Below, piece after piece: positions 2,760-42,618 of a DNA stretch of 64,000 nt. Location: positions 7,976 to 71,975 of the forward strand of contig RFJU01000131.1 of the NCBI GenBank assembly GCA_003694805.1, in the 5' to 3' direction. The DNA comes from Candidatus Woesearchaeota archaeon. Lineage in GTDB: Archaea; Nanobdellota; Nanobdellia; Woesearchaeales; J110. The position numbers and the translations under genes were made by a program. The stretch's first letter is position 1; each line of letters begins with the position of its first letter. Under the pieces are notes generated by a model. It was not told the DNA's origin and made no database searches. It worked only from the letters and a program-made list of their open reading frames with translations.

Positions 2760-3635
2760 TTAGTCCGGGAGGGTGATTTGGTTCTTGCGGAAAACAATAA
2801 TGCCGTCGTTGTGTAGGCTTTCAAGAGCGGCTGCTACGCGTTCTGGAGCGATTTGGAGTTGCTTGGCGAGTTCTTTGCTTGTTGTTTCAAATCCTTCCCT
2901 GGAGAGTTTAACGGCGCCTTTGCTGAGGAGGTGTCTGATGATCGCTCCGCGTGCTTGGCGGGTGGATCCTTCAAAAGAGGGTTGCTTCGTTGTGGGGGGT
3001 ATGTTTGTTGTCTTGCTGGTGAGGACGGTTGCGCCATAGTCCATGAGCGCATTATGCCAGTCGCGTGATCGTCCTTTCGGGATGAGTTGCTTGGCAACGG
3101 TTGCGAGGTCTTGGGCTGAGATGGTGTGTGGAAGACTGCATTCGTGGATGAGTACGCGCCTGATGTTCGTGTCTATTACCGGTTCTGGCTTGTTGTATGC
3201 GAAGGCAAGGATTGCACTGGCAGTGTAGGCGCCTATCCCTGGGAGGCGTTGGAGGTCTTCTTTGTTGTGGGGTATTTTGTTATTGTGTTCTTGAACGATT
3301 CGCTTTGCCGTTTGGAGGAGGCGCAGGGCACGCGCGTTGTATCCGAGACCGGACCAGGCTCGAAGAACGTTTGCGGGGCGTTCTCGAGAAAGGCAGGTGA
3401 TGGTGGGCCATTGCGAGAGCCATGCGAGATAATACGGTTTGACGCGTTCGACTTGTGTTTGTTGGAGCATGAATTCTGATACAAGAATCGCGTAGGGGTC
3501 TTTCGTCTTGCGCCAAGGCAGGTCTCGGGCGTTGCGGGCGTACCACGTGAGGATTTTTTTGTGGAGTTGGCGCCTCGTTTTGAGCGGGATGTGAGGCAGG
3601 GCTTCCTTTTTTTCCGGTTTTGGTTTTTTTTGCAT
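2760..3635 (-). CDS. HhH-GPD family DNA glycosylase (MutY/EndoIII-like) with C-terminal winged-helix-like tail; no Fe-S cysteine cluster evident
   Basis: MutY-like N-terminus (LTWYARNARDLPWRKTKDPYAILVSEFMLQQTQV), an HhH motif LPGIGAYTASAI, and a catalytic Asp in ALMDYGATV. It lacks the C-x6-C-x2-C-x5-C cluster. Confidence 0.75.
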   Translation of the reverse strand: MQKKPKPEKKEALPHIPLKTRRQLHKKILTWYARNARDLPWRKTKDPYAILVSEFMLQQTQVERVKPYYLAWLSQWPTITCLSRERPANVLRAWSGLGYNARALRLLQTAKRIVQEHNNKIPHNKEDLQRLPGIGAYTASAILAFAYNKPEPVIDTNIRRVLIHECSLPHTISAQDLATVAKQLIPKGRSRDWHNALMDYGATVLTSKTTNIPPTTKQPSFEGSTRQARGAIIRHLLSKGAVKLSREGFETTSKELAKQLQIAPERVAAALESLHNDGIIVFRKNQITLPD

Positions 3636-3697: not shown

Positions 3698-4837
3698 ATG
3701 GATGCTTGTGTTGTTACGGACCCTGGCCTGGAACGCCTTGCTTGTCAAGAGGTTGAGCGCCTCGTGGGAGGCGACCCTGTTGTGAAGAAAGGCATGGTTT
3801 TTTTCCGTGTTCAGTCCGCTGAGGAGGCGGTCTTGTTTGCATATCGTTCACTCCTCGCGAGGAGGGTGCTCCTTGTCGTTGGAAGAGGAAGTGTGCGCGA
3901 AGGCGTTCATAGCGTGGTGAAGAATATTGAGTGGAAGGTGTTGAAAGCGTTGGTGAAGGATGGCGAAACGTTTGCTGTGCGATGCGAGCGCTTTGGGTTG
4001 TACCGTTTTGGGACGATGGAGGCGCAGGAGATCGTTGGGGGCGCGGTGAAGAAGGAACTCCGGGGCGTGAACGTTTCGTTGTCAAACCCTGACGTCCTTC
4101 TTTTCTTGTGGATTTGTGATGGTGAGGCAGTGCTTGGTGTTGACGTCGTCAAGGTTGATTTGTCCAAGCGGGCGTACCGCGTTTTTTTGGGTAGTGATTG
4201 GTTGAAAGGGTCTTTAGCTTCGGGGGTTTTAGAGCTCGCTGAAGTGAAGGAGGGCGAGGTCTTCCTCGACCCCTTTTGCGGTGCTGGAACGTTATGCATT
4301 GAAGCAGCGTTGCGCCTGAGTGGAAGGTCGCCGAGGAGGTATCAAAAAGACTTGTTTGTGAAGGGTTGCAGGCGAGCTTCCAAGGAGGTGGTGCAATCCT
4401 TGTTGGACGCTGTTGACAAGAAGGAGGAGGATGCCAAAGATCCTTGCATCTTCGGGTTCGATAGCCGGCTCTCCAGTGTTTCTGCTGCGAGAAAGAACGC
4501 GAAGATTGCTGGTGTGCAAAAGCGCATTGCCATTTCTAAAGTGGATGTTGAGTGGATTGACTTGAAGTTCGACGAGGGCGGTGTTGATGTTATTGCCACG
4601 TGCCCTCCTCGTGCGAGTAGACTGCTGCCGGAAAGTAAAATTGAAGTGTTGTACAATGAGTTGTTTCATCAGGCGCGCTACGCACTCTCATCGAAAGGCA
4701 GGGTGTGTGTTGTGACCAGCGCTCCTGATCACTTAAAAAAACATGCTCAGGCGAGAGGTTTTGCTTTGAGAGCGGAAGTTCAGGTGTGGTCAGGGAAGCA
4801 GGAGCTTTGGTTGTTGTTGTGGGAAAAGCGGCCGTGA
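3698..4837 (+). CDS. THUMP-domain RNA methyltransferase (Trm14/Trm11/RlmL-like N2-guanine MTase)
   Basis: The N-terminal region is THUMP-like. The SAM motif I is LDPFCGAGTLCIEAA, and the C-terminal region is a class I MTase. Confidence 0.8.
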   Translation: MDACVVTDPGLERLACQEVERLVGGDPVVKKGMVFFRVQSAEEAVLFAYRSLLARRVLLVVGRGSVREGVHSVVKNIEWKVLKALVKDGETFAVRCERFGLYRFGTMEAQEIVGGAVKKELRGVNVSLSNPDVLLFLWICDGEAVLGVDVVKVDLSKRAYRVFLGSDWLKGSLASGVLELAEVKEGEVFLDPFCGAGTLCIEAALRLSGRSPRRYQKDLFVKGCRRASKEVVQSLLDAVDKKEEDAKDPCIFGFDSRLSSVSAARKNAKIAGVQKRIAISKVDVEWIDLKFDEGGVDVIATCPPRASRLLPESKIEVLYNELFHQARYALSSKGRVCVVTSAPDHLKKHAQARGFALRAEVQVWSGKQELWLLLWEKRP

Positions 4838-10499: not shown

Positions 10500-10784
10500 A
10501 TGAAGTTTAAGCCATTAGGAGAACGAGTTTTACTCAAACCCGAAAAAGAAGAAGAAAAAACCAAGGGCGGCATCTACATTCCTGACACAGCAAAGGAGAA
10601 GAAGAAGCAGGGAGAAGTCCTTGCTGTCGGCACGTACACAAAGGGGCCGAACGCAGGAAAGCCCCTGCCGCTCTCCAAAGGCGATAAGGTGCTCTATGGC
10701 GGGTACAGCGCTGATGAAATTGAAGTTGACGGAGAAGAGTTCGTCTTCGTTGACTTCAAGGATGTTTTAGCAAAAATAGAATAA
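10500..10784 (+). CDS. groS: Co-chaperonin GroES (bacterial type)
   Basis: MKFKPLGERVLLKPEKEEEKTKGGIYIPDTAKEK...DKVLYGGYSADEIEVDGEEFVFV. GGAGG lies 9 nt upstream of ATG 10500. Confidence 0.9.
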   Translation: MKFKPLGERVLLKPEKEEEKTKGGIYIPDTAKEKKKQGEVLAVGTYTKGPNAGKPLPLSKGDKVLYGGYSADEIEVDGEEFVFVDFKDVLAKIE

Positions 10785-12488
<1,704 letters not shown>

Positions 12489-13689: not shown

Positions 13690-15045
13690 TTATTGTTTCG
13701 TGACGGTGAGGCCGAGTTCGTCGAGTTGTGCTTTGCTCACCTTGGAGGGTGCCTGAAGCATCATGTCTTCTGCATCTTTGTTCTTAGGAAAGGCGATGAC
13801 TTCGCGGATGCTCTCTTCCCCTACGAGGAGCATGGCGAAGCGGTCAAGACCGAACGCGATGCCGCCGAGTGGGGGGTTGCCGTATTGCATTGCATCGAGG
13901 AGGAAGCCGAATTTTTCTTTTGCTTCATCTTCGTTGATGCCGAGGAGCTTGAAAACACGCATTTGGGTGTTGTAATCAAAGATTCTGAGACTTCCTCCTG
14001 CTATTTCGTTGCCGTTCAGGACGAGGTCATACGCGCGTGCTAGGATTTTTGCAGGGTCTTTCTCCTCAAGGTTCTGGGGGAGGGTGAACGGGTGGTGCAT
14101 GGCTTTGTAGCGTCCTTCTTCTTCGCTGTACTCGAACATGGGAAAGTTAATAATCCAGCTGAAGTGGAAGTCTTCACCAGGGGCGCGCAGATCTGGGCGG
14201 TCCGTGCCGTGTTGTTTCATAACGTCTGCGTAGTTGAGACGTTCAAAAGGGATGGCGATGTCGACGCCGAGGACGTGTTTGAAGACGTGTTGTATCATGC
14301 GTTCGATGACGTCGAAGAGGTCGTCTTCTTCAATGAAGCTCATTTCCATGTCAATTTGGGTGAATTCTGGCTGGCGGTCTGCTCTGAGGTCTTCGTCCCG
14401 AAAGCACCGGACGATTTGGAAATATTTGTCGTACCCTGCGATCATGAGCAGTTGCTTGAAGAGTTGGGGGCTTTGTGGAAGGGCGTAGAATGTTCCTTTG
14501 TGTATTCTACTGGGTACGAGGTAGTCCCTGGCGCCTTCGGGTGTGCTTTTGGCAAGGAACGGCGTTTCTATTTCGAGGAATCCTTCCTTGTCGAGGAAGG
14601 TTCTGACGGCTGTTGTGAGCTTATGCCTGAGGGCGAGGTTGCGTTGGAGACGGGGTTTTCTGAGGTCGAGGTAGCGATACGTGAGGCGGGTTTCTTCTGT
14701 TGAAGTTATGTTTTCGTCAAGTTCCATGGGGAGTGCTTTTGCTTGGCTGAGGACGGTTAGTTTTGTCGCGGCAACTTCCACTGCTCCCGTGGCGAGTTTG
14801 GGGTTCGGGCTTGGCTTCTCCTTGACCGTGCCTTCAACGGTTATGACGCTCTCCCTCTTGAGATTTTTGAGATCTGGCAGGAAGGTTTCGTCAAAGAATA
14901 CTTGGGTGGTTCCGTAGCGGTCGCGGAGGTTGAGAAAGGCGAATTTTTTCATGATTTTGAGGGTGTCAACCCAGCCGGAGAGGATTACTTGCTTGCCTGC
15001 ATCCCCTTTGCGCAGCTCGCCGCACGTATGTGTTCGGTACGCCAT
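13690..15045 (-). CDS. aspS: Aspartyl-tRNA synthetase, bacterial-type core but lacking the GAD insertion domain
   Basis: Class II motifs QSPQLFKQLLM and FRDEDLRADRQPEFTQID. ...DRPDLRAPGEDFHFSWIINFPMFE joins directly where bacterial AspRS carries the ~130-aa GAD domain. A TATA-like 'gttatttaaat' lies ~30 nt upstream. Confidence 0.9.
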   Translation of the reverse strand: MAYRTHTCGELRKGDAGKQVILSGWVDTLKIMKKFAFLNLRDRYGTTQVFFDETFLPDLKNLKRESVITVEGTVKEKPSPNPKLATGAVEVAATKLTVLSQAKALPMELDENITSTEETRLTYRYLDLRKPRLQRNLALRHKLTTAVRTFLDKEGFLEIETPFLAKSTPEGARDYLVPSRIHKGTFYALPQSPQLFKQLLMIAGYDKYFQIVRCFRDEDLRADRQPEFTQIDMEMSFIEEDDLFDVIERMIQHVFKHVLGVDIAIPFERLNYADVMKQHGTDRPDLRAPGEDFHFSWIINFPMFEYSEEEGRYKAMHHPFTLPQNLEEKDPAKILARAYDLVLNGNEIAGGSLRIFDYNTQMRVFKLLGINEDEAKEKFGFLLDAMQYGNPPLGGIAFGLDRFAMLLVGEESIREVIAFPKNKDAEDMMLQAPSKVSKAQLDELGLTVTKQ

Positions 15046-15176
15046 CGTTCTGTTGGGTGGCGAAAGAAAAAGAGTTATTTAAATCTTGTGTGCGTTGAGA
15101 TGCTTGGGCGGGTTGGCCGTTGTAGCGTGTGCTGAGCGGGGTTGGGACTGAGAGACGGAAGGATGAAGGGCGCTTC

Positions 15177-15339
15177 TGCGCCTGCCGGGACTTTCGCCTC
15201 TGGGAGCTTTGCACTGGGTTTTCGGGACGAGGTCCGCTTTGGCGTTCCGCCGTCCTTTCGCTTCGTACAAAATCCCTTCGATTCGAACCCGGGTAGCGAG
15301 CTTGGGAAGCTCGAATCATAGCCACTAGATCACAGGCGC
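15177..15339 (-). tRNA. tRNA-Gly(CCC) interrupted by a ~91-nt intron in the T-arm (exon 1 ~15280..15339, exon 2 ~15177..15189); no encoded CCA
   Basis: Reverse-complement reading gives GCGCCUG-UG-AUCU-AGUGGCUA-UGAU-U-CGAGC-UUCCCAA-GCUCG-CUAC-CCGGG-UUCGAAU-C, then 91 nt, then CCGG-CAGGCGC-A. The acceptor stem GCGCCUG/CAGGCGC is a perfect 7 bp. The anticodon stem is CGAGC/GCUCG with loop UUCCCAA. The T-stem CCGGG/CCCGG can be completed only by joining across the insert. Confidence 0.7.
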
Positions 15340-15421
15340 GAACCCCTCTCCTTCCTGGCCTCTCTTTGTCATCGTCGTGTTTGCTCTGTGCGGGGGCTGC
15401 TCTGGTTGAGTGGCGTTGTAT

Positions 15422-16090
15422 TTATGAATTTTTTGCAAAGGCAATGCCTTCTTGAGTGATGGTGAATGATCCTGTCTTGGGGGGGAGGGCTCTGCTCTTG
15501 CGCAGGTGAAAGAGCGTTTTTTCTTTGGTTTTTTCTAGTTCTATGAGACATTTGCAGCTGTACTTGACGATTTCTCCTCCGACGATTTTGGTGGTTTCTT
15601 TGTTATTGAAGTCGGGGTAGACTTGGGTTGTGATTATCACCGGTATTTGGTCTCTTCTTGCTATTTCTACAAGGTAGCTGAGCTGGAGGCCGAGGGCCCT
15701 GCTGGGGAGGTAGGGGTCTTTTGCCTTGCTGAGTTCGAGGCGGTAGAGGGCGCCTATGGAGTCTACGACGATGAGGGCGGTGTTCTTGCTTGCCATGAGT
15801 CGTATGGCATCGATGGCTTTTCGCTGGTCTGCGAAGGTTGTTGGCTTGAAGAAGGTGATGCGGTTGAGGGAGTCTTCAAAGTCTGGGTTGACTTGTTTGA
15901 ATCGTTCAAGGCTGAAGCCGCCCTCTGTGTCAAGCCAGAGTATGGTTCCTGTTTTTTGTGCTGCGGCGCAGATGAGGAGGAGGTTTGTCTTGCCGCTCCC
16001 GGCGGGACCGTAGATGGCGGTGACAATGTCTTTTTCGTAGCCTCCCCCAAGGAAGTCATCAAGGTCCTTATTTCCAGAGGTGATGCGCAT
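15422..16090 (-). CDS. radB: RadB (archaeal RadA paralog, KaiC/RecA-like ATPase)
   Basis: MRITSGNKDLDDFLGGGYEKDIVTAIYGPAGSGKTNLLL... is a Walker A motif within a short RecA fold of ~223 aa. The track ORF extends 157 low-complexity codons further upstream, which was rejected. Confidence 0.8.
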   Translation of the reverse strand: MRITSGNKDLDDFLGGGYEKDIVTAIYGPAGSGKTNLLLICAAAQKTGTILWLDTEGGFSLERFKQVNPDFEDSLNRITFFKPTTFADQRKAIDAIRLMASKNTALIVVDSIGALYRLELSKAKDPYLPSRALGLQLSYLVEIARRDQIPVIITTQVYPDFNNKETTKIVGGEIVKYSCKCLIELEKTKEKTLFHLRKSRALPPKTGSFTITQEGIAFAKNS

Positions 16091-21955: not shown

Positions 21956-22171
21956 TCACTTGACGGCACGAATGCGTGAGGCGTCGGGCGAGGGGCGGAT
22001 GTTAAAGGTTCTGCCGCAGTAAACACAGCGTTTGCGCTTCTTCGTAATGTCCCCCTTTCTTGGCTGACAGCGTTGGCTTTTTCCGCAGCGAGGGCAGATA
22101 ACAACGAGCATGGTGCAGGGAACGAGCCATAATGCTTTTAAATCTTCCTTCTTCCCGTCCAGTGTTCCCAT
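21956..22171 (-). CDS. Small C4 zinc-ribbon protein
   Basis: CPRCG-x17-CVYCG with a basic linker. The longer track ORF overlaps tRNA-Pro and was trimmed to the internal ATG. Confidence 0.4.
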   Translation of the reverse strand: MGTLDGKKEDLKALWLVPCTMLVVICPRCGKSQRCQPRKGDITKKRKRCVYCGRTFNIRPSPDASRIRAVK

Positions 22172-22211
22172 CCGGTGCATGTGCTGGTCGCGGAAGAGGC
22201 GTTTGTTCGTT

Positions 22212-22284
22212 GGGGCTGTAGTGTAGCTTGGTATCACTGGCGGTTCGGGGCCGCCCAACCGGGGTTCGAATCCTCGCAGCCCCA
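22212..22284 (+). tRNA. tRNA-Pro(CGG), 73 nt, no encoded CCA
   Basis: GGGGCUG acceptor stem pairs with CAGCCCC. The anticodon stem is GGCGG/CCGCC with loop UUCGGGG. The T-arm is CGGGG-UUCGAAU-CCUCG, and the discriminator is A. Confidence 0.85.
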
Positions 22285-22384
22285 TGTGTTTTTTTCGCTA
22301 GCGTATGATGCTGAACGGGTGCGAGAGGGATCGCGTGTTGGATGTTTGGATGTTGTTTGATGGATGGCGCGTGGGGAGGTAGTA

Positions 22385-24649: not shown

Positions 24650-25663
24650 TTAGACTATTTGTATGTCGTAGCAGACGCGAAAGGTTCCTGGTGCGTGTTG
24701 GCCGCAGAGTTCGGCAGAAAGAAGGCTTGCATCAAATCCTTCTTTTTTGATTGCTTGTTTGAGCTCTTCACCTCGAGAGTGAAGCATTTCTTCTTTGACG
24801 AATTGGTAGAGGTGAATGATGCCTCCTTGAACGATTTTGGGAAGTGCGACGTCGAGGTACGTTTCTGCCGCTTTAGGCAGGGGCATGACTATTCTGTCAA
24901 AGCACCCTTCAAGAAGGGGGGCTTTGTCTCTGACATCGCCTTGGATGAGGTGGACGTGTTGGAGTTTGTTGAGCGAGACGTTTTCGAGTCCGAATTGGTG
25001 GCCTTGGGGGTTGAGTTCGATGCCGATGACTTCGCTAGGTTTTGCGAGCTTGGCTATGACGCAAGGATAAGGAGCGCATCCGGAAAACATGACAAGAACT
25101 CGTTCGCCGGGCTCTACTTGTTCTGCGATGCGTTTGCGTTCAGTCGCGAGGCGGGGTGAGAAGTAGACGGTTTCGACGTTGAGTTTGAGGAGGACGCCGT
25201 TTTCCTTGTGGATTGTTTCTTTTCGTTTTTCTCCTGCGAGGTGTTTGAGGGTTTGCGTTCGGTATGGGCCTTCGTGTTTTCCTTTTTGATAGACTGCTTT
25301 GATGTTGGGAAAGAGTGTTAACAGTGTTTGCGCGATGAGGGTTGCTTTTTTTTGGAGCTTGGCATCAACTTCAATGATCGCGATGTCGCCGATGAGGTCA
25401 TAGGCGGTTTTGAGGCTTGCTTGTTCCTCCGGTGATAGTTTTTTGGCTAGTGCTTCTTTGAGGTTGGTTTGTGGTTGTTTTTTCAGCCCGTCGCGCTCGA
25501 TAAGCGGGTAGTCGAGGTCATCCACTGCTGCGCCTTCTTTGATGGGGAAGTAGACGTAGGATTCGTCGCTCTGTGCCTTCGTCGCGTAGTCTAAAGCGCC
25601 GTGGCTGACGAGCATGCTCTTCGTCACTTCAGCATCTGTTTTGGGGACGCGTAAAAATTTCAT
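24650..25663 (-). CDS. tRNA methyltransferase of the Trm5/Taw2 (Tyw2) class
   Basis: Met-10+-like MTase with VLVMFSGCAPY, an ELNP motif and HLIQGDVRD. Confidence 0.7.
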   Translation of the reverse strand: MKFLRVPKTDAEVTKSMLVSHGALDYATKAQSDESYVYFPIKEGAAVDDLDYPLIERDGLKKQPQTNLKEALAKKLSPEEQASLKTAYDLIGDIAIIEVDAKLQKKATLIAQTLLTLFPNIKAVYQKGKHEGPYRTQTLKHLAGEKRKETIHKENGVLLKLNVETVYFSPRLATERKRIAEQVEPGERVLVMFSGCAPYPCVIAKLAKPSEVIGIELNPQGHQFGLENVSLNKLQHVHLIQGDVRDKAPLLEGCFDRIVMPLPKAAETYLDVALPKIVQGGIIHLYQFVKEEMLHSRGEELKQAIKKEGFDASLLSAELCGQHAPGTFRVCYDIQIV

Positions 25664-29079: not shown

Positions 29080-29706
29080 TTATGGGCGCATCCAGCGCAC
29101 TTCCCAGTAGCTTACATCTCCTTCGTCGTCGACGACGCCGAGCATGAGGCGTTTTTTGGTGCTGTGGGCTACGCGGTTTTTGGCGGCGAATTCGTGCCAG
29201 GTGAGGGTTTCTCCTTCGTGGACGGGGAAGACGACCCATCTGGCGTGGTCCTCGCCTGGCTTGACGCCGCGGTCGTAGATGCGAAAATCAGCGCCGAATT
29301 TGAGGGCGGTCTTGATGATGTAGCCTCTATTGCGAATGTCTTTGTAGACCATGTAGCGTACCCAAAAGTCGGGTTCTTCTTTGATGGCGCGTTTGAGGTA
29401 GCGTTCGGTGGTGAATGGTTGGTTTCTGCCATCGAGAATGATGAGTTTTCCTTTCTCGAGGAGGTAGAGTGCTTCAAGGAGGCTGAGTTGCACTTTTCCG
29501 TCTTCGAGGAGGGAGCCGAACCTGTTTTGGTGGTAGAGGTCTCTTGCGGCGTCTGAGTTCTCAGTGATGACTCTGTGAACGGCCCAGTGTGCCTTGGCAG
29601 GTTCTTTTTTCTTCGTGGTTTGTTTGCTTGTTTCTTTGTTTTCTTTTTTCTCGGAGGACTTGCTTGTTTTCTTCTTGGTTGTTGCTTTCTTTTTTGCTGC
29701 TGGCAT
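29080..29706 (-). CDS. endA: tRNA-splicing endonuclease EndA (alpha4-type length) with Lys-rich N-terminal tail
   Basis: Catalytic block FGADFRIYDRGVKPGEDHARW...AHSTKKRLMLGVVD supplies the Tyr/His/Lys triad. N-terminal helical domain LSLLEALYLLEKGKLII. The first ~35 residues are K/T/S-rich. Confidence 0.8.
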   Translation of the reverse strand: MPAAKKKATTKKKTSKSSEKKENKETSKQTTKKKEPAKAHWAVHRVITENSDAARDLYHQNRFGSLLEDGKVQLSLLEALYLLEKGKLIILDGRNQPFTTERYLKRAIKEEPDFWVRYMVYKDIRNRGYIIKTALKFGADFRIYDRGVKPGEDHARWVVFPVHEGETLTWHEFAAKNRVAHSTKKRLMLGVVDDEGDVSYWEVRWMRP

Positions 29707-29904: not shown

Positions 29905-30801
29905 ATGGAGTTGCACATTTTAGGAACCTCAGGCATGGTGCCCACGAAAGAGCGAAACGTCCAAGGTCTTGCCCTCGTTTACAAGGGAGAAGTGCTTTTG
30001 TTTGATTGCGGAGAGGGAACCCAGCGGCAGATGAACATTGCCGGGCTGAACAGAACGAAGGTGCGCAAGATCTTGATATCTCATTGGCATGGCGATCACG
30101 TAGCGGGGCTTATTGGTTTGCTGCAAACTATTGGTAATAGCGACAACCCACAGCCCGTTTCGTTGTGGGGGCCTCCGGGGACGAAGAAGCACATGGATCA
30201 CTTGGTTCGATCGGTGATTTGGGATGTTAAAGTCGACCTTGCCGTGCATGAAATCAGGCCGCGCTGCGTGTCTGTCTTCTTTGAAAATGAAGACTATGCT
30301 CTTTCTTCTGCCCGTCTAGACCACAGCGCGCCATGTCTTGGCTTTCGTTTTGAAGAAAAAGCAAAGCGGCGTATGTTGCCTGAGAAGCTGAAAAAGGCGG
30401 GCGTGAGGGGTCGCTTGATTGGCGAATTGCAAAGGGGAAAATCGGTGAAGATTGGCGGCAAGGATGTTCATCCTGATGATGTTTCGCTTGTAAAAAAAGG
30501 CCGTTCCTTTGCCCTTGTTGCCGATACGCGTTTGTGCCAGTCTGCTGTTGACCTTGCAGGAGGAGCGGACGTGTTAGTGTGCGAGTCTAGTTTTGATTCG
30601 TCAATGCAGGACAAAGCTGATGAGCGCAAGCACTTAACGGTGAGAGACGCGTGTCAGATTGCGCAGATGAGCGGGGTGAAACGGTTGGTGCTCACGCATT
30701 TCAGTCAGCGGTATAAGTCGCTCAAGGCGTTGGAGGAGGAAGCAAAAACGTTGTTTCCGAACGTGGCGATGGCCCACGATTTTATGGTTGTTCGATTTTA
30801 A
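29905..30801 (+). CDS. rnz: Ribonuclease Z (tRNA 3' processing, metallo-beta-lactamase fold)
   Basis: MELHILGTSGMVP...ISHWHGDHVAGL (HxHxDH) and C-terminal His motifs. It is divergent from endA, and TATA-like 'agatagtttaaaaaac' lies upstream. Confidence 0.85.
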   Translation: MELHILGTSGMVPTKERNVQGLALVYKGEVLLFDCGEGTQRQMNIAGLNRTKVRKILISHWHGDHVAGLIGLLQTIGNSDNPQPVSLWGPPGTKKHMDHLVRSVIWDVKVDLAVHEIRPRCVSVFFENEDYALSSARLDHSAPCLGFRFEEKAKRRMLPEKLKKAGVRGRLIGELQRGKSVKIGGKDVHPDDVSLVKKGRSFALVADTRLCQSAVDLAGGADVLVCESSFDSSMQDKADERKHLTVRDACQIAQMSGVKRLVLTHFSQRYKSLKALEEEAKTLFPNVAMAHDFMVVRF

Positions 30802-42015: not shown

Positions 42016-42618
42016 TTATAAGCGTTGTTGTTGCAGCTGCTCGTCCTCGCCGTTCTCTTGCGTTGTGTGTTTTCGTGCTCGGGTTTTGGTGAGGGGGAAC
42101 GTCGCGAGGGGGAGGTATTCCGGACCTCGTGGCGTGAGCGTGCTTTGGAAGAGGTGGAACGCATCTACGTCGAAGGTGAGCGGCTTGACGCGTCCTCCAT
42201 GCCATTCGTGAAGGCCCTTGTGGCGCTTGATAACAACGGCGCGAGCTAAGGTAAGGTGGGGGTGGAAGGGCCTGTCTTCTTTGAGGTTCACTGCTTGTGC
42301 CACCTCATTTTGAAGCTTGGAGAGCTGGGCGGACGGAACGATGCCCAGCCAGAAAACGGCCGGCTTGCCTCCTCGCTTGAAAAATCCTCGATGAGACGTG
42401 GTGAGGGTAAAGGGTTCTTGATGTATTCGTTGCAGGGAAGAAATGAGCGTTGGTAGCTCGTCCTTGTTCTTCTCGCCGAGGAAGGCGAGCGTGAGATGTG
42501 CTTTTTTGACTTGAGGGTAGCGGAGAACAGCCCCTTCTACCGAGGCCAGCTTTGCTTGTTCATTGTGTAGGAGTTGTTGAACAGTTTTTGGTAGGGTGAT
42601 GGCTACGAAGAGGCGCAT
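42016..42618 (-). CDS. RNA 2',3'-cyclic phosphodiesterase (LigT/ThpR, 2H family)
   Basis: Two H-x-T-x motifs: HLTLAFLG and HPHLTLARA. Confidence 0.75.
   Translation of the reverse strand: MRLFVAITLPKTVQQLLHNEQAKLASVEGAVLRYPQVKKAHLTLAFLGEKNKDELPTLISSLQRIHQEPFTLTTSHRGFFKRGGKPAVFWLGIVPSAQLSKLQNEVAQAVNLKEDRPFHPHLTLARAVVIKRHKGLHEWHGGRVKPLTFDVDAFHLFQSTLTPRGPEYLPLATFPLTKTRARKHTTQENGEDEQLQQQRL

Follow-up and report, generated by a model that had tools for sequence, protein, structure and literature searches.

A woesearchaeal tRNA-Gly(CCC) gene with a probable EndA-type intron at T-loop position 59/60

A tRNA-Gly(CCC) gene interrupted in the T-loop

Does a tRNA gene whose T-loop is broken by 91 nt still encode a working tRNA, and how would the insert be removed? 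The question is raised by a tRNA-Gly(CCC) locus in a 64 000 nt stretch of DNA, here called the window, from a metagenome-assembled genome (MAG) of Candidatus Woesearchaeota, a DPANN archaeon. An earlier reading, made from sequence alone, had described a minus-strand tRNA-Gly(CCC) split by an insert of about 91 nt, and the sequence from 15339 to 15177 reads exactly so, comprising a 58 nt 5′ exon, a 91 nt insert and a 14 nt 3′ exon. In our judgement this is very probably a functional gene with an EndA-type intron at position 59/60, placed within a relaxed bulge–helix–bulge (BHB) motif. The features computed here were the exon/intron anatomy, the predicted fold, an EndA gene in the same genome and, in relatives, a conserved insertion site with pairing across the intron. 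The gene is made up of the following parts.

15282–15339, minus strand: 5′ exon of tRNA-Gly(CCC), standard positions 1–59 (sequence; ARAGORN on the in silico spliced product; partial Rfam tRNA match)
15191–15281, minus strand: putative 91 nt intron at 59/60, UCGAAGGG...GGCGAAAG (splicing in silico; precursor fold)
15177–15190, minus strand: 3′ exon, comprising U60, T-stem 3′ strand CCCGG, acceptor 3′ strand CAGGCGC and discriminator A73 (sequence; ARAGORN)

In gene order the sequence is GCGCCUG-UG-AUCU-AGUGGCUA-UGAU-U-CGAGC-UUCCCAA-GCUCG-CUAC-CCGGG-UUCGAA, followed by 91 nt and then by U-CCCGG-CAGGCGC-A. The 5′ exon contains the acceptor 5′ strand, the D-arm, the anticodon arm with CCC, a 4 nt variable loop, the T-stem 5′ strand and the T-loop sequence UUCGAA, and the 3′ exon carries no encoded CCA. 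The segment CCCGGCAGGCGCA, located at 15189–15177 on the minus strand, occurs at one place only when both strands of the 64 kb are considered, with a chance expectation of 0.10 when one mismatch is allowed; this single occurrence, 98 nt downstream of the T-stem partner and on the same strand, indicates that the arrangement is not due to chance.

Deletion of the insert left a 72 nt sequence that was identified as tRNA-Gly(ccc) by ARAGORN, which called no tRNA at the gene in the native unspliced sequence. This bears out the claim of the sequence-only reading that the stems are complete only once the insert has been removed. The spliced product has a perfect 7 bp acceptor stem, a 5 bp anticodon stem and a 5 bp T-stem, as well as G18G19 and UUCGAAU. 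It also has C2:G71, G3:C70 and A73, which we take to be archaeal and eukaryal glycine identity elements. Repeated letters at the junction mean that the splice point can be moved to follow raw position 58, 59 or 60 with an identical product. We placed the intron at 59/60 because BHB geometry selects it among these equivalent boundaries (a slide of 1–2 nt), and the earlier proposal of an intron at about 59/60 instead of 37/38 therefore holds. The 5′ junction itself reads TCGAA|TCGAA. A split or permuted tRNA gene was ruled out, as both exons follow one another in order on one strand, with 91 nt between them.

The Rfam tRNA model matched the 5′ exon only (15284–15339, 18.6 bits versus a threshold of 29), and the other Rfam searches of the native sequence, including one in gathering mode, did not list the tRNA-Gly gene. 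The gathering-mode run also missed a tRNA-Pro that scored 51 bits in another Rfam run, and was treated as unreliable. With the gene invisible to both ARAGORN and the Rfam tRNA model, the MAG would appear to be without tRNA-Gly(CCC), and other DPANN genomes with such T-loop introns would likewise seem to miss the tRNA. Incomplete-looking tRNA sets of DPANN genomes have been raised by Kaneta et al. 2018 (PMC5829648).

Predicted fold of the splice junctions

The minimum-energy fold of the 163 nt precursor was −67.6 kcal/mol (z = −3.3 versus shuffles). This fold keeps the acceptor stem and T-stem and adds a 4 bp helix and a 3 nt bulge on the 3′ side, with pair or unpaired probabilities of at least 0.9. 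The junction elements are as follows.

15284–15287, minus strand: 5′ strand of the central 4 bp helix, T-loop nucleotides U54 U55 C56 G57 (pairs with 15193–15196, probability 0.90–1.00)
15193–15196, minus strand: 3′ strand of the central 4 bp helix, the intron-end CGAA (precursor fold; pair probabilities)
15190–15192, minus strand: 3 nt bulge A-G|U with the predicted 3′ splice site (unpaired probability 0.97–1.00)
15282–15283, minus strand: A58 A59, unpaired, just 5′ of the predicted 5′ splice site (fold; pair probabilities)

The layout of the precursor parallels the canonical 37/38 case, with the T-stem replacing the anticodon stem as outer helix; the order is outer helix, 3 nt bulge on the 3′ strand, 4 bp helix and a 5′ site two nucleotides past that helix. 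The A-G-U bulge sits between the central helix (CGAA) and the T-stem strand CCCGG. On the other side, A58 A59 face G-G (15197–15198) in a 2×2 internal loop, not a 3 nt bulge, and the nucleotides beyond them are paired (U-A and C-G, probability 0.99). The strict hBHBh′ (3-4-3) motif was rejected, given that a 3 nt AAU bulge would leave only one C-G pair. Folding of the junctions, which the sequence-only reading had proposed as a check for a BHB motif, was thus favourable in part: a relaxed motif forms, but the strict one does not, and the 5′ site falls in the 2×2 internal loop. As modelled, the junction motif is a relaxed BHB of the hBH or bulge–helix–loop (BHL) class.

In canonical 37/38 geometry, the cuts fall on either side of the central helix at a distance of two nucleotides. 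This rule is consistent with PMC3239211. Applied to the predicted fold, cuts at AA|U and AG|U give UUCGAA+UCCCGG and restore the T-loop UUCGAAU. In the route that we infer, transcription would yield a precursor of about 163 nt, extended by a leader and a trailer, in which the acceptor stem and T-stem would form as in the mature tRNA. The T-loop UUCG (54–57) would then pair with the intron-end CGAA to give the central helix of the relaxed motif, and EndA would cut two nucleotides past each end of this helix, with the first cut after A59 in the 2×2 AA/GG internal loop and the second between G and U of the bulge AGU. Finally, the exons would be joined and the T-loop re-formed by an RNA ligase, possibly of the RtcB type. 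The actual cleavage sites would be those given by this geometry, and the EndA encoded in the window would suffice for both.

Introns at the same site in related tRNA genes

Species-representative genomes were scanned with a 5′-exon pattern; the figures given here refer to the matches listed (at least 120), and the source genome was not among them. Intact tRNA-Gly(CCC) genes made up 115 among the matches listed, four of them labelled Woesearchaeota, and T-loop inserts were present in at least two (2/120 among the matches listed), which gives a rough sample of the 59/60 frequency. Genes for tRNA-Gly(CCC) with T-loop introns of 12 and 33 nt were found in L088 (Aenigmatarchaeota) and L016, respectively. 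The only contig from a narrower metagenome scan, L123, carries a tRNA-Gly(CCC) about 90 % identical to that in the window, with a 13 nt intron (UUGAUUACGAAAG) at the same site and the same ACGAAAG|UCCCGG junction. The L123 T-arm folds as T-stem, 4 bp helix, 9 nt loop and 3 nt bulge, a textbook BHL, and L088 is alike. A further case was found in L127, a Woesearchaeota MAG (GCA_043812815.1) whose aspartyl-tRNA synthetase (AspRS) is 67 % identical to that in the window. Its tRNA-Ser(CGA), at 476–597 on the plus strand, has a 12 nt intron at 37/38 and a 23 nt intron at 59/60, the latter ending UGAAAG|UCCGGG.

The AG|U bulge is common to the window gene, L123 and the L127 tRNA-Ser, and 4 bp helices equivalent to that of the window gene are present in L123, L088, L016 and L127. 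ARAGORN called the tRNAs of these four only once the T-loop insert was removed. The closest intact relative, L018, has a tRNA-Gly(CCC) without an intron. These sequences add Woesearchaeota examples to the known 59/60 introns, of 13, 23 and 91 nt in related genomes with none in another relative, a pattern showing that introns at a single site are rapidly gained, lost or lengthened.

Pairing was assessed in an alignment (n=5) in which the intact L018 gene was set beside four tRNA-Gly(CCC) sequences with their introns removed. Cloverleaf pairing over the five sequences was 97 %. In the four intron-bearing genes the intron separates the two strands of the acceptor helix; across the alignment this helix was 100 % paired, with compensatory double changes in 4/7 pairs, and slid registers paired only 26–43 %. 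As the search pattern prescribed the 5′ strand of the T-stem, the invariance of this strand is uninformative. The compensatory acceptor-stem changes across the intron are indicative of selection on the spliced molecule, which speaks against a pseudogene. A home-made scan for more T-loop-interrupted tRNAs was far too permissive, and its credible cases were the known ones only. Separately, L127 contains an interrupted tRNA-like gene at 3344–3472 on the minus strand, just upstream of aspS (GGCGAAG...GGACTCATAAT...CCCGGGTTCAAAGCCCGGCTTCGCC), with an insert of ~50 nt containing GATGAC; ARAGORN mis-called it as a tRNA-Ser with a 1320 nt intron.

The EndA encoded in the window

The sequence-only reading had named an EndA gene of the window as the source of the excising enzyme.

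29080–29706, minus strand: EndA (tRNA-intron lyase), 208 aa, with a Lys-rich N-terminal tail and an α4-like core (PF01974, PF02778)

The gene, 14 kb from the tRNA-Gly, was confirmed; the assigned role is less straightforward, as the protein is α4-like and without the loops that have been tied to cleavage of relaxed motifs. It is 100 % identical to an NCBI entry, 'tRNA-intron lyase [Ca. Woesearchaeota archaeon]', and homologues of ~200 aa number in the thousands, from Woesearchaeota and Nanoarchaeota MAGs. Relatives in the PDB include the N. equitans α subunit (3IEY_A, 5e-37), the M. kandleri fusion and the M. jannaschii α4 enzyme (1A79, 4e-30). At the alignment positions of the catalytic Tyr, His and Lys, the window protein retains Y144, H154 and an STKK motif, and its core residues 63–208 are collinear with M. 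jannaschii, one 1-residue gap excepted. No second EndA-like open reading frame (ORF) that might encode a β subunit was found within the 64 kb window, although one could lie elsewhere in the genome. The segment YDRGVKPGEDHA is invariant in 15 woesearchaeal homologues. Residues 1–37 (29596–29706, minus strand) form a Lys-rich low-complexity tail (MPAAKKKATTKKKTSKSSEKKENKETSKQTTKKKEPAK). Woesearchaeal homologues have such tails at lengths between 0 and about 60 residues, whereas the core is very conserved; the basic tail could be relevant to substrate binding.

According to published work, α4 and α′2 EndA enzymes need the strict motif, and broad specificity is conferred by a Lys in an extra loop (PMC3239211, PMC3241643, PMC5829648). 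One such loop is a longer Tyr–His segment, a Lys-rich insertion of the C-terminal domain (PMC3239211) that was renamed the L3 loop in PMC5829648. The other two belong to the N-terminal domain: CSL/L1 in (αβ)2 enzymes and ASL/L2 in ε2 enzymes. L3-bearing α4 EndAs occur in several DPANN lineages, where they coincide with more disrupted tRNA genes, and Woesearchaeota were among the lineages surveyed (PMC5829648). The DPANN α4 enzymes of that study are said to carry L3, unlike the window EndA as judged by its Tyr–His spacing. Among the features described here, only the combination of a loop-less EndA with a relaxed T-loop motif still lacks an explanation. It is conceivable, though we would sooner expect otherwise, that a single α4-like woesearchaeal EndA of ~200 aa, without the three described loops, alone cuts relaxed hBH/BHL T-loop introns. 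If true, this would break the rule that loop-less α4 enzymes require the strict 3-4-3 motif, and broad specificity would be reached by a fourth route, for which there are two candidates: Lys149, invariant within Y-DRGVKPGED-H, and the variable N-terminal tail rich in Lys.

The body of the intron

The insert is predicted to be structured in its own right.

15202–15276, minus strand: long imperfect hairpin GGGAUUUUGUAC / GUGCAAAG-C-UCCC, with an inner GGACG...CGUCC hairpin (folding)

Folded alone, the intron gave −31.1 kcal/mol (z = −2.6). A second copy was not found within the 64 kb window, and a 25-mer from the intron core had no exact match among viral contigs. A self-splicing group I intron was ruled out, as the insert is 91 nt long (versus a core of >200 nt) and has no Rfam match at E up to 10.

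The intron interior at 15224–15261 on the minus strand (GCGAAAGGACGGCGGAACGCCAAAGCGGACCTCGTCC) resembles 15161–15197 on the same strand, 64 nt downstream, with about 26/38 positions identical. In terms of the intron, positions 21–58 are collinear (~68 % identity) with a region that runs from the true end of the intron through the 3′ exon into the trailer (shuffle p ~0.05–0.07). One hypothesis from these alignments is that the long intron arose by a 64 nt tandem duplication of this region, since decayed. Antisense to the tRNA trailer, at 15125–15181 on the plus strand, there is a weak match to the C/D-box small RNA sR28 (12.6 bits versus a threshold of 39; E = 0.54 in a 321 nt search), which is probably due to chance.

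Alternative explanations for the insert

Several observations weigh against a functional, spliced gene. The nearest TATA-like box is not at the usual distance but 80 nt upstream. Glycine codons of 14 window genes are GGG in about 20 % of cases, so that a GGG reader is needed, which favours a working gene; a UCC isoacceptor could cover GGG decoding, however, and a tRNA-Gly(UCC) elsewhere in the genome might make this gene dispensable. The predicted 5′ splice site lies outside a 3 nt bulge and the strict hBHBh′ motif is not formed. The Tyr–His spacing of the window EndA is nine residues, equal to that of M. jannaschii, versus 15 in the N. equitans α subunit and 14 in ARMAN-2, which indicates an enzyme without the L3 insertion. 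Aligned with the loop-less unit of M. kandleri, its N-terminal domain shows two 1-residue gaps only and no insertion like the crenarchaea-specific loop or the ASL. Introns that have a relaxed motif or lie outside the anticodon loop are poor substrates for loop-less EndAs (PMC3241643, PMC5829648). Most of these points would also suit a dead tRNA-Gly(CCC) pseudogene with a 91 nt T-loop insertion, whose BHB-like fold would follow incidentally from the palindromic UUCGAA. The intact relative L018 shows that the gene can exist without an intron, and the part of the insert that resembles a decayed 3′ exon and trailer fits a duplication accident, although the shuffle test gave a p of only ~0.05–0.07. 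Nevertheless, all stems and conserved tRNA positions are intact in both exons, the 4 bp helix and 3 nt bulge are found exactly where splice geometry requires them, and at least four other genes have introns at this site, across which the acceptor stem shows compensatory changes. We therefore regard a pseudogene as unlikely.

The remaining alternatives concern the origin and content of the insert. An assembly artefact or chimera could be suspected, as the source is a MAG with unusual composition and strong GC skew. A Logan assembly contig from SRR7905024 (9.3 kb) is, however, 99.9 % identical and matches the tRNA and insert without a difference; it was assembled separately, but the sample may be shared with the source and its independence is incomplete. 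The flanking radB and aspS genes are intact, and the insert is structured and compatible with the motif, such that an artefact is scarcely credible. The intron might also mainly carry a functional small RNA, either a guide or a stable circular RNA, which would be compatible with a spliced tRNA-Gly(CCC) gene. Such a role would explain its length (91 nt versus 12–33 nt in the related 59/60 introns) and would suit the stable hairpin. Neither a C box (RUGAUGA) nor a D box (CUGA) was found in the 91 nt, however, and the intron matched no Rfam family, including any C/D family, at E up to 10. The scans run turned up no homologous long intron, and hence no support from conservation. We give a small-RNA role a slim chance, a little below that of the pseudogene and well above that of the artefact. 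A spliced tRNA-Gly(CCC) gene thus remains the best explanation of the locus.

Comparison with known systems

T-loop 59/60 introns in DPANN archaea have already been described (PMC3239211, PMC5829648), and what is unusual here is the length of the intron together with an α4-like EndA without the known broad-specificity loops. The nearest precedent is ARMAN-2, for which 59/60 introns with relaxed motifs are published and in vitro cleavage of a 13 nt 59/60 hBH intron by archaeal EndA was shown (PMC3239211). Both cases share a DPANN host, a T-loop 59/60 intron, a relaxed hBH (BHL) motif and the T-stem as outer helix. They differ in the tRNA, which here is Gly-CCC, in intron length (91 nt versus 13 nt) and in the 5′ site, which here lies in a 2×2 internal loop closed by a long hairpin and in ARMAN-2 lies in a terminal loop. 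The ARMAN-2 enzyme is a three-unit ε2 EndA, whereas that of the window is a 208 aa α4-like protein without ASL/L2 or L3 insertions. Splicing by the protein endonuclease was demonstrated in vitro for ARMAN-2, whereas the present case is known from sequence and fold.

Non-canonical D- and T-loop introns are well known in Crenarchaeota and Nanoarchaeum (PMC3241643). As in the introns of Crenarchaeota/Thermoproteales and Nanoarchaeum (Marck & Grosjean 2003; Sugahara 2008; Hirata 2011, PMC3241643), the BHB/BHL motif here lies outside 37/38, the T-loop included, and recognition independent of the mature domain and frequent gain and loss among close relatives are common to both. Those lineages, in contrast, have (αβ)2 heterotetrameric EndAs with a Lys-bearing crenarchaea-specific loop, and neither a β subunit nor such a loop is present in the window. 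The pre-tRNA-Glu(UUC) of Methanopyrus kandleri, with a D-loop HBh′ intron (PMC5829648), is similar in combining a relaxed motif outside the anticodon loop with an EndA lacking specificity loops. That enzyme is (αβ)2 and cuts the relaxed intron inefficiently (PMC5829648), whereas the window EndA is α4-like.

In length, the intron is comparable to another unusually long archaeal tRNA intron found at a BHB motif. The case here is incremental, and nothing in it is surprising enough to change the field, but the pairing of a relaxed motif with a loop-less EndA provides a direct test case for the model that links EndA architecture to specificity. The long intron in question is that of Haloferax volcanii tRNA-Trp, which is about 105 nt, contains a box C/D guide RNA and is located at 37/38 in a strict BHB; that in the window differs in its 59/60 site, its relaxed motif and its lack of C/D boxes.

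Genomic context and expression signals

The tRNA-Gly gene is flanked by two protein-coding genes on the same strand.

15422–16090, minus strand: radB, upstream of the tRNA (Pfam Rad51, 3.5e-24; homologues named RadB)
13690–15045, minus strand: aspartyl-tRNA synthetase (aspS), downstream of the tRNA (Pfam tRNA-synt_2, 2e-122; homologues named aspartate--tRNA ligase)

The placement of the gene directly downstream of radB, as first read from the sequence, agrees with these assignments. The nearest RadB relative is 54 % identical and the nearest AspRS 68 %. In the relatives L122, L124, L127 and L128, examined for radB–tRNA–aspS synteny, no tRNA-Gly was found at that place.

The only upstream TATA-like box is ATAAATA at 15419–15425, which extends into the radB stop codon, 80 nt ahead of the tRNA gene, and may serve as the tRNA-Gly promoter. 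TATA-like boxes are present at about −30 in the relatives L123 and L127. The window's other tRNA, an intact tRNA-Pro(CGG) at 22211–22285 on the plus strand with a T-run behind it, has its nearest TATA-like box (TTTTAAAT) at about 22136–22143, ~70 nt upstream. The two spacings, 80 nt and ~70 nt, suggest that tRNA leaders may be long in this organism. Expression of the tRNA-Gly via a long leader and co-transcription with radB are both possible.

Other archaeal information-processing genes in the window encode RadA, FEN-1, Hjc and RPA. Genes for RNA processing and modification include a Trm5/Taw2 methyltransferase (24650–25663, minus strand), a THUMP-domain methyltransferase (3698–4837, plus strand) and a LigT-like 2H phosphoesterase of the 2′-5′ RNA ligase family (42016–42618, minus strand), which is not RtcB. 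Divergent from EndA and beside it lies a gene for a metallo-β-lactamase-fold protein (29905–30801, plus strand; Pfam Lactamase_B_2) with an HxHxDH-type motif, ISHWHGDH. By its sequence this protein may be RNase Z, the tRNA 3′-end nuclease, in which case two tRNA-processing nucleases would adjoin. Adjacent ORFs at 10500–12488 on the plus strand resemble bacterial-type GroES/GroEL (MKFKPLGERVLLKP...), as judged by their N-terminal sequences only.

The window is also compositionally skewed. GC skew is positive in every 2 kb bin of 1–64000 (+0.09 to +0.40) and AT skew is negative in almost every bin, both for the plus strand. A greedy ORF set was evenly stranded, with 34/69 on the minus strand, indicating that the skew does not simply follow gene orientation.

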